DNA of 64,000 nucleotides from assembly GCA_020632375.1 (NCBI GenBank), contig JACKFR010000001.1:85106-149105 (forward strand), given 5' to 3'. The translations under genes were made by a program, and so were the position numbers. This document shows, piece after piece, positions 6,683 through 29,583 of this stretch. The notes under the pieces are model-generated. The model saw only the letters and a list, made by a program, of their open reading frames with translations, made no database searches and had not been told where the DNA came from. Origin of the DNA: Candidatus Nomurabacteria bacterium. Lineage in GTDB: Bacteria; Patescibacteriota; Dojkabacteria; SC72; JAHDCA01. Every line of letters starts with the position of its first letter. Position 1 is the first letter of the stretch.

Positions 6683-8923
6683 ATGGAAGTAAAACAAAGA
6701 GTTTTGGCGTCTGAAGTTCCGGCAAAAATTGGTGAAAAAGTAAAAGTGTCTGGATGGGTAGCTACTTTGCGTGATCACGGCAAACTTATCTTTATTGACA
6801 TGAGAGACTGGTCAGGAATTATTCAACTGGTTGTGAACTATGAAAATAAAGAAATTGTTGAGATTGCGAAAAGCCTTGGTAGTGAATTTGTAATAGAAGC
6901 CGAAGGAACTGTTGTCAAAAGAGAAGAGGATCTGGTCAATGATAAAATACCTACAGGGGGTGTAGAGATTAAGCTCGAAAAGCTGACTCTTTTAAACAGA
7001 TCTAAGCCAATTCCCTTTCCTCTTGATACTGATGGGCATGAGATTGATGAGAGTCTTCGATTGAAGTACCGTTTTATTGACATGCGCCGAGACAGGGTCA
7101 AACAGATCATGCAGAAAAAGCATAAACTTATTCTTGGCGTTAGGAACTGGATGAGTAAGAATGGATTCACTGAGGTAATAACTCCTCTCTTGACCAGCAC
7201 TTCTCCTGAAGGTGCACGAGATTATTTTATTCCTTCTCGTATTCACCGCGGCAAGTTTTTTGTATTACCTCAAGCACCTCAGCAGTATAAGCAGCTTCTA
7301 ATGGTTGGAGGAGTTGATCGCTATTTTCAAATTGCACCATGCGCTCGTGACGAAGATCCAAGAGCAGACCGCCATGCGGGAGTATTTTATCAAATAGATA
7401 TCGAGATAAGCTTCCCAACAATAGATACAATATTTGATGTATGTGAGAGAATGCTTCGTGATACTTATACTTTGGTAGCACCTGAAAAAAAGATACTTCA
7501 GGTTCCGTTTCCTCGCTTAACTCATAAAGATGCAATTGAAAAATATGGCACTGACAAACCAGATACCAGATTCGGGATGTTGATAAATGATATAACCGAG
7601 ATTGTCAAAGGAAAGACTGATTTCCAGGTGTTTAACTCTGCAGAAAGTGTCAAATGCATAGTTGTCGAAGGAGCGGGTGAGTGGTCTCGCACAAAGATTG
7701 AAGATCTAGAAAAGTTTGCAAAAGAACAAGGTGCAAAAGGTCTTGCATATTGCAAGGTTGACTCAGGTAAGCTTGAGTCAGGAATTGGGAAATTCATTTC
7801 AAGTCTATCTGAAGAAATTATCACTCAGATAGAAGCTAAAAACGGCGATTTGATACTTTTTGCCGCCGACCAAAATGAAAAAGCTTGTAAGATCCTTGGT
7901 ACAGTAAGATCAAGGTTGGGACAAGAGTTGGGTCTTTTAGACGAGAGCGTACTCTCTTTTGTTTGGATCACCGATTTCCCTTTTTACGAAATTGATGAAA
8001 AGACGGGCAAACTTGACTTTGCTCATAATCCTTTCTCAATGCCGCAGGGAGGATTAGATGCATTTGATGTCGATGATCCTCTTAAGATACAGACTAACCA
8101 GTATGACCTCGCATTAAACGGATATGAAATACTTTCTGGGTCAATTCGAAACCACGATCCTGAAGTCTTGGTTAAAGCTTTTGAAACAGTCGGGTATGGT
8201 CGTGAAGAAATTCTTAGACGGTTTGGAGGTTTATATGAAGCATTCCAGTATGGTGCGCCGCCACACGGGGGCTGGGCTATCGGGATTGATAGGCTTTTTA
8301 TGGTTTTAATAGACGAGCCAAATATTCGTGATACTTACGCTTTCCCCAAAAACTCTAACGGTATGGATCTAATGATGAATGCACCTAGCGAGGCAAGCCC
8401 AGAAGATCTTGATATACTTGGGATAGAGCTTTCTGATAAAGGCTCATCAACAGTTACTAAGATTCATAACTTACTTGATAAAGCTGGTGTTGAGTACAAA
8501 TTCTTAGAGCATGAGCCAGTAAAAACTTCTGCAGAATCCGCAAAAGTTAGGGGGACTCAGCTTGGAGATGGCGCAAAAGCAATGGTTATTAAGTCTCTCG
8601 AATACAGCGATAAATACAAGATGGTAGTGATTCCCGCAGATGCCCAGCTTGATCTAGATAAAGTGACCCAAAATCTTGGTGAGAAATATAAAGTAGCTTC
8701 ACCTGAAGAAGTAGAAAAGCTGATTGGGATACAGGTCGGCGGGGTTCCTCCATTCGGTCGCCTTCTCGGTTTAGATCTATATTTCGACTCTTCAATGTGG
8801 GAAAAAGAAACCTCAGCATTTAACTGTGGTAGGAGAGATCGATCGATCGTTATGAAAACAAAAGATCTTATTGAGCTTGCAGAGCCGGATGCTAAATCGA
8901 TAAAATTTGACTTCAAAGCCTAA
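6683..8923 (+). CDS. aspS: Aspartyl-tRNA synthetase fused to a C-terminal YbaK/ProX-type aminoacyl-tRNA editing domain
   Basis: Class IIb motifs (FYQIDIE, RADRHAG, GGWAIGIDRL) through about aa 585. About 159 extra residues follow (8444-8920) with YbaK-like signatures (GAKAMVIK, GGVPPFG). Total 746 aa. Confidence 0.9.
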   Translation: MEVKQRVLASEVPAKIGEKVKVSGWVATLRDHGKLIFIDMRDWSGIIQLVVNYENKEIVEIAKSLGSEFVIEAEGTVVKREEDLVNDKIPTGGVEIKLEKLTLLNRSKPIPFPLDTDGHEIDESLRLKYRFIDMRRDRVKQIMQKKHKLILGVRNWMSKNGFTEVITPLLTSTSPEGARDYFIPSRIHRGKFFVLPQAPQQYKQLLMVGGVDRYFQIAPCARDEDPRADRHAGVFYQIDIEISFPTIDTIFDVCERMLRDTYTLVAPEKKILQVPFPRLTHKDAIEKYGTDKPDTRFGMLINDITEIVKGKTDFQVFNSAESVKCIVVEGAGEWSRTKIEDLEKFAKEQGAKGLAYCKVDSGKLESGIGKFISSLSEEIITQIEAKNGDLILFAADQNEKACKILGTVRSRLGQELGLLDESVLSFVWITDFPFYEIDEKTGKLDFAHNPFSMPQGGLDAFDVDDPLKIQTNQYDLALNGYEILSGSIRNHDPEVLVKAFETVGYGREEILRRFGGLYEAFQYGAPPHGGWAIGIDRLFMVLIDEPNIRDTYAFPKNSNGMDLMMNAPSEASPEDLDILGIELSDKGSSTVTKIHNLLDKAGVEYKFLEHEPVKTSAESAKVRGTQLGDGAKAMVIKSLEYSDKYKMVVIPADAQLDLDKVTQNLGEKYKVASPEEVEKLIGIQVGGVPPFGRLLGLDLYFDSSMWEKETSAFNCGRRDRSIVMKTKDLIELAEPDAKSIKFDFKA

Positions 8924-24427: not shown

Positions 24428-24754
24428 GTGATGCCTGCTAAAAGAGAAGAGCTCAAGAGGATGTTGGACGAAGGCACCAACATGACCTTACTCGACGTTT
24501 TGCCGGAAGAGTATTTTAAGAAAGAGCATATTCCTGGGTCAATAAATATACACAAAAGCAAGATCGAAGAAGAAGTTCCAGCAAAAGTTTCTAAAGATAA
24601 ACCTGTTGTAACTTACTGCGCATCGTTTGAGTGCACATCATCAATCCAAGCGGCGGCAGTGCTTGAAAGTATGGGGTATGATGTTTATGAATTTGATGGC
24701 GGGATGGATGATTGGAAAGATGCTGGGTATAATGTGGAAGGATCTAAGCAGTAA
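24428..24754 (+). CDS. Rhodanese-domain protein (single domain)
   Basis: Active-site loop context VVTYCASFECTSS with C-terminal GGMDDWKDAGY, typical of rhodanese homology domains. Confidence 0.8.
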   Translation: MMPAKREELKRMLDEGTNMTLLDVLPEEYFKKEHIPGSINIHKSKIEEEVPAKVSKDKPVVTYCASFECTSSIQAAAVLESMGYDVYEFDGGMDDWKDAGYNVEGSKQ

Positions 24755-25627
24755 TTGCTGCTAGCTAAAAATATGCACACTTCTCCATCACTAAAACAAA
24801 GAACAGTTGAACAAATCGGGATTGGCTCTGAAAGTGCTGCTATTAGAGCGGGTGACCCGAATAATTATGACGAAGTCATCAGGCTACAAGAACTTTTGAA
24901 TTCTGAGGGCTATCTTAGATATTTCTCTCCACCGAATGATCTCTCTACTGGTGCTCAAATGAACTTCTCTTATATTGATGCCATGTCGATGCTTAACCAA
25001 GATCCGAATACTAGGCTAAAGAAGCTCCTTGAGAAAAGTTCTCGATCTAGTGCCAGATTTATAATTAGTCGCTCAGCACTGCATTATGACAACTCACATG
25101 GAGAATTACAAGGATTAGTTTGTGTTGGGCTAGATAATAATTATAAATCACTTCATGATGAGCTTGAAGTAATTAGAGTCGAAAAGGGGCTACCATTACT
25201 TCAGTTTTCTCCATATCCTAGACTTGAGATAGCATGTATGAAACATCCTGATGCTATGGGTAAACAGATCGGATCAGGTGTCAGACAAGTTTTATATCAA
25301 GTGTATCAAGCCGCAAGCCATGTTATTGAGGTTCAGAAGTTGAATGATGGGACTTATCGAGTAGACCGTTTTGCCCACCTGGAAGATAAATCCCCGTCTT
25401 CATCTGATACAAGACAAGAATTAGAGAAAGGTTTGAGAGAGGGAATTACGGTCGGAACACCTGTCGTAGTCATTGCATACATAGAGCCTGACAACATAGG
25501 TTCAGTTAGAGTCGCATTATCTGCAGGTTTTGTCTTGATTAATTCACAGCGTTCACATCATGTTTATCAACTTGACTGGAATTTATGGCAGGAGAAGCTG
25601 AGAACAGGTAGGTTTGAATTGAGATAA
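24755..25627 (+). CDS. Hypothetical protein, possibly GNAT-fold
   Basis: Weak GNAT-like motif A (MGKQIGSGV) and C-terminal NIGSVRVALSAGF. The call is tentative. Confidence 0.35.
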   Translation: MLLAKNMHTSPSLKQRTVEQIGIGSESAAIRAGDPNNYDEVIRLQELLNSEGYLRYFSPPNDLSTGAQMNFSYIDAMSMLNQDPNTRLKKLLEKSSRSSARFIISRSALHYDNSHGELQGLVCVGLDNNYKSLHDELEVIRVEKGLPLLQFSPYPRLEIACMKHPDAMGKQIGSGVRQVLYQVYQAASHVIEVQKLNDGTYRVDRFAHLEDKSPSSSDTRQELEKGLREGITVGTPVVVIAYIEPDNIGSVRVALSAGFVLINSQRSHHVYQLDWNLWQEKLRTGRFELR

Positions 25628-25828: not shown

Positions 25829-25900
25829 CTCCGCGGAGAGGATTCGAACCTCTAACCCGCTGATTAACAGTCAGCTGCTCTACCATTGAGCTACCGCGGA
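25829..25900 (-). tRNA. tRNA-Asn (anticodon GTT)
   Basis: Hand-folded on the minus strand: TCCGCGG-TA-GCTC-AATGGTA-GAGC-A-GCTGA-CTGTTAA-TCAGC-GGGTT-AGAGG-TTCGAAT-CCTCT-CCGCGGA-G. Confidence 0.9.
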
Positions 25901-26667: not shown

Positions 26668-27216
26668 GTGAAGAAATTCATAAATCTCAGGCATCTGTGT
26701 ATATTAATTTTATTGATAACATCAATTATTGTCGTACCATCTTCAGTTAGTGCTCAAGAAACCACAGCGGTAGATACGAATTCTGTTCCGACTTATGTGC
26801 TTTATGTTCATGAAGACTGTCCTCACTGTAAAAAAGTTGAAGCATTTATTGCTGATAATAATCTTGAAGATCAAGTTGACAGCCGAGAATTGAAGAATAA
26901 TGACAAGCACATGAAAGAGCTCGAAGCATTATGGGATGAGTTTAATCTCCCTGACAATGAGAGAGGGTGGCCATTTATGCTGATCGATGACAATGGCGAC
27001 CGTAGTTATGTATCAGGTGATAGCCCAATTATTGCAGAACTTGGAAATACTTTCGGGATCTCTGTTCCTAATGATAGTGCTGGTAATAGTTCGACGACCA
27101 CTTCTTCATCAAACACCTCTACTGCCGATACACTGCTTTTAGTTTTAGGTGGTGTCGTAGTTTTCGCAATAGTCGGCTATGCGGTATATTCTTCTATTAA
27201 TGACTCAAAAAAATAG
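26668..27216 (+). CDS. Secreted thioredoxin/glutaredoxin-fold protein with C-terminal membrane anchor
   Basis: Signal peptide, redox motif CPHC (HEDCPHCKKVEAF), Ser/Thr-rich linker, C-terminal TM helix. GTG start. Confidence 0.65.
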   Translation: MKKFINLRHLCILILLITSIIVVPSSVSAQETTAVDTNSVPTYVLYVHEDCPHCKKVEAFIADNNLEDQVDSRELKNNDKHMKELEALWDEFNLPDNERGWPFMLIDDNGDRSYVSGDSPIIAELGNTFGISVPNDSAGNSSTTTSSSNTSTADTLLLVLGGVVVFAIVGYAVYSSINDSKK

Positions 27217-28045
27217 CGTAAAAAAAGAATTAAGTGAAAGATCAGAGACTAGACTCCCGATTGCATCAGGAAGCTTTTACCCATCTGATAAGCTCGAACT
27301 TACCGAACGCGTAAGTGATTTAATATCTCAGTCAGGTCAAAACCCACTTGCAGGAGTTAAAGCATTAATAGTACCTCATTCTGGCTATGATTATGTGGGC
27401 AGTCTATATGGAAAAGCTTATTCTGCTATTTCTGATTCAAGTATTGACGAGGTTTTTGCTTTGTCTGGATCTTTTTTTCACAAACTTGAAAGTGTTTCGT
27501 TTTGTGATTTTCGCTTTTGGGAAATACCCAACGGCAAAGTTGAAGTCTCGCATAGATTAGACAAAATTATTCATTCAGATGACCCTTCAATTCAAAATAT
27601 CCTTAAGAGAAACAACTCTGCCCATATGGGAGAGCATTCAATTGAAGTTCAGCTTCCATTTCTAATGGAAGCGTTAGGGAGTAGTTTTAGGCTTATTCCC
27701 ACTATGATTGATGGTGTCAGCCCAAGGTTAGCTGCAAACGCCTTAGTCGAACAGATAGATCAAAATGACTTATTAATAGGCGTAAGTGAGTTGTCGAGAG
27801 GTTATCCGAAAGATTATGCAATAGATATTGATAAAGTCGCTATCGATTCAATCCTGCAAATGGACACAGACAAGATTCAATCAGAAATGTTTGAAGCATC
27901 TTTTCCTCTAGTTATAGCTGTCGTAAATGAAATTGCAAAGGCAAAAAGCTGGAAGCCACAATTGCTTGAATATACAACGTGTCCAATATCTCAGGAAAAT
28001 CCTCGTAAGGTAATTGGTTGTGTGGCCATCGCATATACTCAGTAG
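27200..28045 (+). CDS. MEMO1-family protein (AmmeMemoRadiSam system protein B type)
   Basis: ASGSFYP, ALIVPHSGYDYVGSLYGKAY and EHSIEVQLPFL are family signatures. Start at 27179 or 27200. Confidence 0.8.
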   Translation: MTQKNSVKKELSERSETRLPIASGSFYPSDKLELTERVSDLISQSGQNPLAGVKALIVPHSGYDYVGSLYGKAYSAISDSSIDEVFALSGSFFHKLESVSFCDFRFWEIPNGKVEVSHRLDKIIHSDDPSIQNILKRNNSAHMGEHSIEVQLPFLMEALGSSFRLIPTMIDGVSPRLAANALVEQIDQNDLLIGVSELSRGYPKDYAIDIDKVAIDSILQMDTDKIQSEMFEASFPLVIAVVNEIAKAKSWKPQLLEYTTCPISQENPRKVIGCVAIAYTQ

Positions 28046-28046
28046 A

Positions 28047-28958
28047 ATGATTAGTGATCCAAGGTACATCAAAAAGCTTGCCGATAAAAAGATTCTTCCA
28101 CTGTATTCTTCACTTGATCGCCCTGTTTCGCCTGGTGAGTACTCAATCTCTGGCTTGCTAAAAAATGAAGGTGGAAAATTAATCCTGTTGAATTATGCTC
28201 AGATTATTTCACTCCACGTTAAGCCTTTATCAAACTTTGTCTTTTGTCGAAGTGAAGAGCTCCGTGATGCGCTGATAGTAGGCCTTTTGGGAAGCGATCT
28301 ACGTACTACTTATGATCAAGCATGGAGTACTTCGCAGCTTCCCAATTGGATGGCAAAAGAGAAGGGGAGGGTAGAGACTGATTCTTTTTTGAGAAATGCT
28401 GGCGATGAGATTTTCCCAGAGCAGCTTATTGAATACGCGTGCTCGAAAGGATTGCATGATATTGTGTTTACCTATTCTGAACCTGTTGTTAATCTTGACT
28501 ATATTCTAGATGTTGTCGTAGCAAGTCGTAAATCCGGAATTAGGCTTCACCTCGTCACGAATGGGTTTATGACTACAGAGATTAGAGAAGATATTCTTCA
28601 GGCGGACTTAAACCTTTTATTTAAGCTGCCCAGCTCAGAAGATCAATTTTTTCTGAAGCACTGCAAAACAAGAGTGGGTCCTCTTAAAGAAAATATCTGC
28701 TGGTTTCATTCTCATTCTACCCCTATCCAGATTGAGACGCTTTTGATACCTGAAGAAAACACTTCTCCTGGTCAGCTAAGAAATATTGCGCAATTCATAC
28801 AGTCAATTGATGTTGAAGTCCCGTGGATATTGCGAAGATTTTACCCAGCATATAGAATTCTAGACAAGAACCTTACCACTGATGAATTGCTGCAATCGGC
28901 AGAATCTTTAGGGAAAGAGGCAGGTTTGAAAAATATTCAGATAATAACCGAAAGATAA
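28047..28958 (+). CDS. AmmeMemoRadiSam-type radical SAM homolog lacking the CxxxCxxC cluster motif
   Basis: Collinear with the PflA-like radical SAM family (KNEGGKL, SLHVKPL, IVFTYSEPV, LVTNGF, IETLLIPEENTS, VPWILRRFYPAYR, GKEAGLKNI). The cluster position reads GSDLRTTYDQAW. Only 4 Cys in the whole protein. Confidence 0.75.
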   Translation: MISDPRYIKKLADKKILPLYSSLDRPVSPGEYSISGLLKNEGGKLILLNYAQIISLHVKPLSNFVFCRSEELRDALIVGLLGSDLRTTYDQAWSTSQLPNWMAKEKGRVETDSFLRNAGDEIFPEQLIEYACSKGLHDIVFTYSEPVVNLDYILDVVVASRKSGIRLHLVTNGFMTTEIREDILQADLNLLFKLPSSEDQFFLKHCKTRVGPLKENICWFHSHSTPIQIETLLIPEENTSPGQLRNIAQFIQSIDVEVPWILRRFYPAYRILDKNLTTDELLQSAESLGKEAGLKNIQIITER

Positions 28959-28986: not shown

Positions 28987-29583
28987 ATGGAGCTAAAGAA
29001 TATTAAAGTTAACTTTATTGGAATGGATCCAAGTGACGCTCTTTCTAAATCGGTGCTTGAAAAACTTGAACGACATGATTATCTGATTGACCATGTCACA
29101 AATGGAGAAATAAACATGATTGAAAATACATCCCATCGGGGTGTTTCGCATGACTTTAAGCTGGAGATCACTCTTAATGTGCCGAGGACTAGAGTTCATG
29201 TTGAAGAAACTGGCGAAGACATGTACAACCTAGTTGATTCAGTAACTGAAAAAGTCGTGAGAATGCTTCAACGCTATCATGATAAGCTTCAGCAGTGGGA
29301 AGGAAAAAAACAATGGGTAGTTTCTGAATCTGAAGAGCAAGGAGTTACGGATACGGCTGATTTAGATGGAGGTGATTTTGTTGACTACACTCCGAAGATT
29401 TCGCGCCGTGAAACCCTTACAGATCAGGCGCCTATGGAAGAAGCAGAAGCGATAGAAAGAATGGAGCTTCGAGGACACTTACAAATACTCTTTAAGAATA
29501 AACAGACAGGAAATATTTGTATGGTTTACAAACGGAGAGATGGTACGTATGCCATTGTAGAAGGAGTCGCTGATTCCGTTTAG
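28987..29583 (+). CDS. hpf: Ribosome hibernation promoting factor, long form
   Basis: N-terminal S30AE/RaiA-like domain and C-terminal dimerisation domain (AIERMELRGHLQILFKNKQTGNICMVYKRRDGTYAIVE). Confidence 0.8.
   Translation: MELKNIKVNFIGMDPSDALSKSVLEKLERHDYLIDHVTNGEINMIENTSHRGVSHDFKLEITLNVPRTRVHVEETGEDMYNLVDSVTEKVVRMLQRYHDKLQQWEGKKQWVVSESEEQGVTDTADLDGGDFVDYTPKISRRETLTDQAPMEEAEAIERMELRGHLQILFKNKQTGNICMVYKRRDGTYAIVEGVADSV

Follow-up and report, generated by a model that had tools for sequence, protein, structure and literature searches.

Can a protein built on the fold of a radical S-adenosylmethionine (SAM) enzyme remain of use to a cell once it has lost every cysteine with which its relatives hold their iron–sulfur clusters, and what might its role then be? 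The question is raised by two adjoining genes in a stretch of 64,000 nucleotides from a Candidatus Nomurabacteria genome (assembly GCA_020632375.1, contig JACKFR010000001.1, positions 85,106 to 149,105; placed amongst the Dojkabacteria by GTDB), referred to here as the window. The window, with its 64 open reading frames (ORFs), is all that was covered of this genome. The first gene encodes a relative of human MEMO1 (Memo-like), the second a protein with a radical SAM fold and no cysteine motif (rSAM-like). Both belong to families that, together with AMMECR1, make up the three-protein AmmeMemoRadiSam system. On balance, we favour the view that the pair is the remnant of such a system in one deep branch of the Dojkabacteria, bacteria with tiny genomes, now cluster-free and non-radical and kept for binding or for a new role with Memo.

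Searches of the literature, limited in coverage, returned no description of a cysteine-less AmmeMemoRadiSam clade or of a conserved radical SAM pseudoenzyme, and no experimental function for the widespread Memo/AMMECR1/radical SAM system. Memo–AMMECR1 systems are said to have been described by Burroughs and co-workers in 2019 (JBC). The human proteins MEMO1 and AMMECR1 are both linked to disease and work without a radical SAM partner.

Descent and lost motifs of the rSAM-like protein

The rSAM-like product has the same sequence as an NCBI entry called 'radical SAM protein [Candidatus Dojkabacteria bacterium]'. The original prediction had identified it as a homologue of the radical SAM enzyme of AmmeMemoRadiSam systems, and this assignment stands. 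Against the corresponding profile, TIGR04337, the protein scores 97.5 bits (E = 6.7e-28), short of the curated cutoff of 220. The Pfam family Radical_SAM (PF04055) covers residues 137–249 only, with 28.6 bits for a gathering score of 29.5, and TIGR02493 displays weak similarity in the barrel core (E = 6.8e-06). Profile–profile comparison with hhalign of the cysteine-less clade against canonical enzymes only gave a probability of 100% (E = 7.5e-61) over 282 columns. The AlphaFold2 model, with a predicted local distance difference test score (pLDDT) of 85.5 and a predicted template-modelling score (pTM) of 0.86, is a PflA-like barrel. The best matches of this model in the Protein Data Bank (PDB) are PflA structures (3C8F, 3CB8 and 8FO0; E about 1e-12, target-normalised template-modelling (TM) score 0.76–0.78), and RlmN, viperin and QueE are matched also. 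A sequence search of the PDB with the rSAM-like protein found nothing significant. Since the gene occupies the same syntenic slot as a canonical gene in a related genome (locus L013, see below), nests within the family in a neighbour-joining (NJ) tree and gives this hhalign result, the protein is, as judged from sequence, a descendant of the AmmeMemoRadiSam radical SAM enzyme.

It was also claimed that the cluster motif CxxxCxxC had been lost, and the alignments bear this out. In both the MAFFT alignments and the hhalign profile–profile alignment GSDLRTTYDQAW sits column for column on the GCNFRCxFCQNW of canonical enzymes, with the three cysteines replaced (C83S, C87T and C90D). Neither method places a cluster motif with its cysteines elsewhere in the protein, the four cysteines of which (67, 132, 206 and 218) are scattered and fall in no column conserved across the clade. 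A census of alignment columns, in the numbering of the window protein, compared 108 canonical with 17 cysteine-less sequences. All 104–108 canonical sequences of the census carry Cys at the three cluster columns. In the clade, position 83 is Asn or Ser (Gly once), position 87 is variable and position 90 is Asp in 16 of the 17 sequences. Five clade members possess a single cysteine in total.

The original prediction was correct as to CxxxCxxC but understated the extent of the change, missing the loss of two four-cysteine motifs, of DPIEKKP, of D-x-K and of His261 as well as the gain of polar residues. The four N-terminal columns that hold Cys in 95–98% of canonical sequences read P, S, R and S, and the C-terminal CPxCG...CPxCG ribbon has disappeared with a tail of 45–60 residues. 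Counting the N-terminal four, CxxxCxxC and the four of the ribbon, none of the 11 family cysteines remains. The clade has also lost, or holds in variable form, DPIEKKP (86–97% in canonical sequences; KPLSNF in the window), D193-x-K195 (97% and 100%; K-L-P), E228 (100%; Gln in the window, partly kept elsewhere in the clade), H261 (98%; Ile) and T142/Y143. The residues retained are G82, N84, E145-P146 (equivalent to GGE), N172-G173, P235, N238, F265 and P267, so that the EP, TNG and IPxEN motifs can still be recognized; some members read GGEP.

With four cysteines that are neither clustered nor conserved, the protein as encoded cannot hold the canonical radical SAM 4Fe–4S/SAM site, in agreement with what had been proposed. 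It should not be annotated as a radical SAM enzyme or filed in TIGR04337, because the score cutoff, all three cysteine motifs and the other family signatures fail. The labels 'radical SAM protein' and 'pyruvate formate lyase activating enzyme' found in public records are a misfit for genes that would be incapable of that chemistry.

How widespread is the loss? A profile built from the window protein and its 62% identical orthologue was run with HMMER, exhaustively, against 1.84 billion cluster representatives. This gave 1875 matches, and the clade was classified from the best 150 of them. Counted as clusters at 50% identity, at least 13 lack all three cysteine motifs, at least four have lost CxxxCxxC and kept the N-terminal cysteines, and at least four keep both of these motifs and lack the C-terminal ribbon. 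The loss of the cluster cysteines marks a lineage and is no isolated accident, being common to at least 17 divergent clusters whose source assemblies (JGI, Logan and NCBI) are independent of one another; three of the clade records carry the name Dojkabacteria. The matches of a word-indexed homologue search with the clade profile were for the most part canonical enzymes, and a profile scan of genome contigs with a subset of the cysteine-less alignment gave no confirmed locus. The three Logan contigs that encode the protein P0002 are identical in nucleotide sequence and so carry no within-population signal.

The order of the losses can be read from an NJ tree (57 sequences, 290 columns, 100 bootstraps). 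The cysteine-less and ribbon-less forms group together as one clade in all 100 replicates, and in 89 of 100 when canonical enzymes bearing an insertion after the cluster loop are added; the cysteine-retaining ribbon-less forms are basal and the fully cysteine-less forms constitute the crown. Four grades can be distinguished. The insertion-bearing canonical enzymes, L013 included, have lost nothing and keep all canonical features, with E237 and K274 already present. The ribbon-less forms have lost the C-terminal ribbon, DPIEKKP, H261 (three of four) and T142/Y143 and have gained R108, K204, H205 and D273, but they keep CxxxCxxC (four of four), D193 (two of four) and K195 (three of four). In the third grade the cluster cysteines, D-x-K and E228 are lost, position 90 has become Asp, N49 and N149 are fixed, and only the N-terminal cysteines are kept. 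The crown, to which the window protein belongs, has lost these too, with no further gain, and no cysteine motif is left. Because R108, K204, H205 and D273 are already found in relatives that still keep CxxxCxxC, a functional shift is placed before the loss of the cluster.

The clade has a conservation pattern of its own. N49, Y50, W93, S196, K204 and D273 are invariant (100%), and D90 and R108 (94%), H205 and K274 (88%) and N149, K207 and E237 (82%) nearly so. In the model these residues would directly follow β-strands and thus lie on the side of the barrel that once carried the active site.

Estimates of dN/dS by the NG86 and YN00 methods were unusable, synonymous sites being saturated, and the raw proportions of nonsynonymous (pN) and synonymous (pS) differences were used instead. 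Between the window and its closest relative (L001, 62% identity) the rSAM-like gene gives a pN of 0.245 and a saturated pS of 0.762, with a dN of 0.30; neighbouring genes range in dN from 0.06 to 0.27, the latter value being shared by a gene for a glutaredoxin-like (Grx-like) protein and one for a methyltransferase. It is the least conserved gene of the block in this comparison (62% identity versus 65–91% for its neighbours). In deeper pairs the identities are 27–35% for rSAM-like, 32–42% for Memo and, not much higher, 31–54% for the neighbours. The figures point to purifying selection on both the rSAM-like and Memo-like genes and to no runaway decay.

The Memo-like partner and the ancestral locus

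The partner had been called a typical member of its family, which is not the situation at its metal site. Membership itself is clear from the scores against TIGR04336 (139.6 bits, cutoff 26) and PF01875 (102.4 bits), and the AlphaFold2 model (pLDDT 95, pTM 0.91) finds its best PDB matches in MEMO1 (3BCZ, 7L5C and 7KQ8; TM score 0.80–0.82). MEMO1 binds iron or copper through H49, H81 and C244, and the mutants H49A and C244S do not bind iron (PMC11081632). We compared the ligand positions, in MEMO1 numbering, in 112 canonical-type and 13 Dojkabacteria-type proteins. H49 is His in 100% of the former and in 12 of the latter, and H131 in 100% and in 11; both are His in the window. At H81 the canonical proteins have His in 97%, the Dojkabacteria type in seven of 13, and the window protein Phe. 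D189 (97% Asp) is Glu in 12 of 13, including the window. H192, His in every canonical protein, is Arg, Lys, Gln or His in the clade and Arg in the window. C244, a cysteine in 97% of canonical proteins (109 of 112), is replaced by Ser, Thr, Val or Phe in 13 of 13, and by Ser in the window.

The histidine of the H81 loop has moved rather than vanished. All six clade members without His at the H81 column have one two residues downstream, and all five with Ser at that downstream position have His at the H81 column, so that the loop retains one His in 13 of 13 by a two-residue compensatory shift. In LigB-type relatives the site is of the His/His/Glu type (PMC11081632). The Memo-like protein has lost the thiolate metal ligand, and its predicted fold is intact. 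Its ability to bind metal is doubtful, or at least different from that of MEMO1, although two His and one Glu may still allow it to bind something.

Many Memo homologues are fusions of AMMECR1 and Memo (PF01871 and PF01875, about 480–500 amino acids), for example P0334, P0336, P0343, P0344 and P0357. Such fusions underline how tightly the two are usually coupled, in contrast to the loss of AMMECR1 at the present locus. The absence of an adjacent AMMECR1 gene, noted at the outset for the window, extends to every clade locus: phmmer run with --max found none in the 64 kb or in the contigs of the clade.

Gene order is well preserved. The arrangement DUF218 (reverse strand), Grx-like, Memo, cysteine-less rSAM, HPF and SurA-like (reverse strand) is seen in the window, L001, L006, L008, L009 and the contig encoding P0056, and continues with M23, FtsX, FtsE, RF2 and iPGM in all of these except L006, which agrees as far as the SurA-like gene. 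The short contig L007 holds only Grx-like, Memo and rSAM-like. The rSAM-like gene is thus a positional orthologue in every contig long enough for a judgement to be made. HPF directly follows the rSAM or rSAM-like gene in eight of eight clade loci, two of which have no adjoining Memo gene. One of these, L010 (710–1755), has lost the cluster cysteines and kept the N-terminal ones; the other, L011 (5484–7570), keeps CxxxCxxC.

The ancestral arrangement appears to be preserved in L013, which was found by a profile scan of genome contigs with a canonical Dojkabacteria Memo. In this metagenome-assembled genome (Dojkabacteria MAG Zod_Metabat.1102, JAFGCJ010000002.1) the same block reads Grx-like, Memo, AMMECR1 and canonical rSAM, and the flanks match those of the window (DUF218, Grx-like, HPF, SurA-like, M23 and FtsX). 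All three proteins exceed their family cutoffs: Memo with 239.8 bits (TIGR04336, cutoff 26), AMMECR1 with 184.3 bits (TIGR04335, cutoff 99) and the radical SAM enzyme, of 354 amino acids with 14 cysteines and all three motifs, with 341.1 bits (TIGR04337, cutoff 220). Four genes, for Fpg, two ABC-2 permeases and a 114-residue ORF, separate rSAM from HPF. Since L013 carries the canonical trio between the same flanks, the window pair appears to be the positional orthologue of a complete three-gene system from which AMMECR1 has been deleted.

Set beside known proteins, the rSAM-like protein shares with the TIGR04337 enzyme homology over about 280 columns, a predicted PflA-like barrel, the position held in L013 and an adjoining Memo gene. 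It differs in lacking the 11 family cysteines, DPIEKKP, D-x-K, H261 and a nearby AMMECR1 gene, and in possessing its own conserved N49, D90, R108, K204, H205, D273 and K274. PflA (3C8F, 3CB8) is the best structural match of the model; it is the activator of a glycyl-radical enzyme and binds SAM and a 4Fe–4S cluster. The rSAM-like protein, by contrast, is devoid of cluster ligands, and none of the genes nearby encodes a glycyl-radical enzyme. The Memo-like protein resembles human MEMO1 and its C244S mutant (7KQ8, 7M8H) in predicted fold, in the equivalent of H49 and in the Ser at position 244, and it resembles eukaryotic MEMO1 in having no working radical SAM partner. It departs from MEMO1 by Phe at H81 (with His two residues on), Glu at D189 and Arg at H192. 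L013 has in common with the window the flanks, a Memo gene after the Grx-like gene and the insertion after the cluster loop of rSAM. Both L013 and L012, a contig of CPR type, differ from it in having AMMECR1, a Memo whose ligands are complete and an rSAM with all three cysteine motifs, with scores above the cutoffs.

Some canonical homologues are of interest in their own right. P0194 (336 amino acids) keeps the N- and C-terminal cysteine motifs and has a cluster loop, GSNFSCEYGLNW, in which other residues take the place of the first and third cysteines. In the NJ tree it is not part of the Dojkabacteria-type clade, and it may represent an independent partial loss. In the canonical P0085 (811 amino acids) an intein (Intein_splicing and LAGLIDADG) lies inside CxxxCxxC, with the junctions ...GCNFSCSF/CFLPDS...VAVCN/CQNW, which would make the third cluster cysteine residue +1 of the extein. 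An intein is possibly present also in P0094, P0123, P0125, P0174 and the fragment P0081. P0076 (952 amino acids), P0075 and P0043 carry a C-terminal fusion to flavodoxin, FAD_binding_1 and NAD_binding_1, the full module being confirmed by Pfam for P0076 only; such a diflavin reductase would provide the radical SAM enzyme with a built-in electron donor. In an Aminicenantales contig (L004:6001–8865, JBAVVD010000068.1) a canonical rSAM gene is followed directly by the genes for Archease and the RNA ligase RtcB, a context that hints at a possible RNA-related role of the canonical enzyme.

What the pair may do

According to the interpretation we favour, AMMECR1 would have been deleted from a canonical trio of Memo, AMMECR1 and radical SAM enzyme. 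The radical SAM protein would have undergone a stepwise reduction, losing its C-terminal ribbon with several signatures, then the CxxxCxxC cysteines with D-x-K and then the N-terminal four-cysteine motif, and Memo would have lost its thiolate metal ligand. With no candidate set of ligands for the radical SAM cluster in its sequence, the rSAM-like protein would make no 5'-deoxyadenosyl radical, and for that reason the ancestral pathway would no longer run. The barrel would instead serve as a cluster-independent binding subunit or scaffold alongside the thiolate-free Memo, using the remodelled face formed by D90, W93, R108, E145, N149, S196, K204, H205, K207, E237, D273 and K274, and would probably recognize a ligand or macromolecule of the kind that its ancestor recognized. 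The two genes stay intact and juxtaposed over a divergence down to about 30% identity, and the one-base junction between them suggests translational coupling. A cluster-independent role is most likely because both genes are intact, apparently coupled and under purifying selection, and because their folds are confidently predicted. A non-catalytic partner role for the rSAM-like protein, as first suggested, is plausible.

Several considerations weigh against this interpretation. Synteny extends over the entire block, some 12 genes long, and adjacency by itself therefore says little about function; the interaction of the rSAM-like protein with Memo is putative. L010 and L011 have no adjoining Memo gene, and the role of the barrel may therefore be independent of Memo. 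Many of the conserved residues on the former catalytic face are charged, which would suit a new active site as well. For the function of the canonical system there are only predictions, such as the modification of RNA bases by AMMECR1 systems (PMC2034487), and the ancestral ligand cannot be named on this basis. Finally, a canonical paralogue or an AMMECR1 gene could lie elsewhere in the genome, outside the 64 kb covered.

The charged residues lead to the idea that the barrel has been rebuilt as a cluster-free site of carboxylates, His and Lys, possibly holding a divalent metal, which with Memo catalyses a new non-radical reaction. The residues concerned would be D90, E145, E237, D273, H205, K204, K207 and R108, and Memo would have re-formed a thiolate-free His/His/Glu site. 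This we consider rather unlikely, although it would account for the 82–100% conservation of clade-specific residues at the C-terminal ends of the barrel strands, for the replacement of the third cluster cysteine specifically by Asp, for the presence of R108, K204, H205 and D273 in the grade that keeps CxxxCxxC, and for the persistence in Memo of the H81-loop His and H49 together with the change of D189 to Glu, a His/His/Glu site being in use in LigB-type relatives. However, the spatial convergence of these residues is hypothetical, their placement being read from the secondary structure of the model; no ligand, chemistry or precedent for the reaction can be cited; conserved polar residues could equally mark a binding surface or a protein–protein interface; and the rSAM-like gene is the fastest evolving of its block. 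We put forward only tentatively the thought that the barrel site binds a ligand or catalyses in company with a His/His/Glu Memo, the pair being then a thiolate-free re-invention of a two-metalloenzyme system. A separate matter is why the cysteines went. A lineage-wide retreat from Fe–S and thiolate cofactors, brought about by reduced or lost Fe–S assembly or by an oxidising or iron-limited mode of life, would have purged Cys-ligated sites and left the proteins with those functions that need no cofactor. It is compatible with the favoured interpretation and is a possible cause, though more doubtful than probable. Both partners lost Cys ligands in parallel, the window proteome is poor in Cys (0.70%), with no CxxxCxxC and only five CxxC motifs in its 64 ORFs, and the most cysteine-rich of these ORFs are not Fe–S proteins. 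Yet 64 kb is too small to reveal an absence of SUF/ISC or of other radical SAM enzymes, relatives with the same gene block keep the full set of cysteines (L013) or CxxxCxxC (L011), and the literature searched on Fe–S biology in Dojkabacteria lends no support. The constant presence of HPF after the gene raises a further option, that the barrel works with HPF, for instance by binding RNA or the ribosome, having descended from an ancestor that modified RNA. The two Memo-less loci that share this neighbour, the predicted RNA base modification by AMMECR1 systems, the Archease and RtcB genes next to a canonical homologue and the conserved basic residues of the clade are in keeping with such a link. 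It is nevertheless improbable, for in L013 four unrelated genes intervene, and synteny of the whole region leaves adjacency with little weight.

Two further explanations would deny any change of role. Arrangements other than CxxxCxxC occur in certain SAM-radical enzymes, ThiC and Dph2 among them, and the rSAM-like protein keeps EP and TNG, with GGEP in some members; it might still be a working radical SAM enzyme that binds 4Fe–4S through non-canonical ligands or obtains a cluster or radical from a partner protein. We find this scarcely credible when no Cys column is conserved in the clade and several members have a single cysteine, when D-x-K, E228 and H261, all nearly universal in canonical enzymes, are lost, and when the Memo partner has no conserved Cys cluster to lend. 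The other explanation is that the gene is a non-functional relic whose disruption is still to come. No gene of the block is less conserved, and the scores are below the family cutoffs, as those of a relic might be, but a pseudogene is highly improbable given intact, full-length ORFs in 17 or more divergent clusters, with identities as low as about 24–30%, a pN far below pS, invariant residues peculiar to the clade, a confidently predicted fold and a tight stop/start junction with Memo. The earlier view that the gene is retained and not decaying is upheld by the same clusters, by positional orthology and by the pN of 0.245 against a saturated pS of 0.76.

If the favoured interpretation holds, the clade amounts to a natural, stepwise dissection of the system, in which AMMECR1, the radical chemistry and the Memo thiolate have gone and two proteins have long been kept. 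Because both were kept for so long in spite of these losses, the pair implies a selectable role that needs neither an Fe–S cluster nor a Cys-ligated metal. A binding or assembly role of this kind may exist in the canonical system too. The four evolutionary grades furnish ready-made constructs with which to assess the contribution of each motif, and a cluster-free member, with or without Memo, should lend itself to expression and crystallisation far more readily than the canonical enzymes, which are sensitive to oxygen.

Layout of the locus

The coordinates of the genes and of the sites discussed above are listed in Table 1. The Grx-like, Memo-like and rSAM-like genes form a tight, co-oriented cluster of three with Grx-like first. 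The stop codon of Grx-like overlaps the start of Memo-like, and a single base separates the TAG of Memo-like from the ATG of rSAM-like. No terminator-like site was found between the genes of the cluster or at the rSAM-like/HPF junction. Over this region there is no antisense ORF of at least 60 amino acids, and no Rfam family other than tRNA was found.

Table 1. Genes and sequence features of the window, in window coordinates.
Feature	Position	Strand	Remarks
Aspartyl-tRNA synthetase fused C-terminally to YbaK-type tRNA_edit domain	6683-8923	+	tRNA-synt_2 + GAD + anticodon OB
Single-domain rhodanese gene	24428-24754		
290-amino-acid ORF	24755-25627	+	no Pfam or NCBIfam match
tRNA-Asn(GTT)	25829-25900	-	
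Grx-like (glutaredoxin/thioredoxin-fold) protein	26668..27216	+	182 amino acids; weak match to Pfam Glutaredoxin
Memo-like gene	27200..28045 (ORF 27179/27200..28045)	+	281 amino acids from ATG 27200; AmmeMemoRadiSam protein B family
Memo-like 'H81 loop', F92-F93-H94	27473..27481	+	Phe at H81 column, His two residues downstream
Memo-like Ser234	27899..27901	+	position of MEMO1 iron/copper ligand Cys244
rSAM-like gene	28047..28958 (ORF 28014/28047..28958)	+	303 amino acids from ATG 28047; Cys-less radical SAM fold
N-terminal CxxCxxxC...C site	28098..28151	+	residues 18-35; four positions read P, S, R, S
Degenerate cluster loop, G82-S-D-L-R-T-T-Y-D-Q-A-W93	28290..28325	+	replaces G-C-N-F-R-C-x-F-C-Q-N-W
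Lineage-specific insertion after cluster loop	28338..28403	+	residues 98-119; near-invariant Arg108 ('GRE' motif); low model confidence
K-L-P-S, end of β4	28623..28634	+	residues 193-196; canonical D-L-K-S/G/A; only Ser clade-conserved
Long-form HPF (ribosome hibernation factor)	28987..29583	+	TIGR00741 + PF02482/PF16321

The Grx-like protein was considered as a specific third partner and rejected. It has a signal peptide, a C-terminal transmembrane anchor and a CPHC motif; in an alignment of seven loci C51 and C54 are invariant and the N- and C-termini are hydrophobic. It is thus predicted to be extracytoplasmic, and its gene is also present in L011, where Memo is missing. Its position beside Memo-like probably reflects synteny, not a specific partnership.

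Two observations elsewhere in the window may be recorded. The 290-amino-acid ORF without a family match lies between the rhodanese gene and tRNA-Asn(GTT). The fusion of aspartyl-tRNA synthetase to a tRNA_edit domain looks like an unusual architecture.

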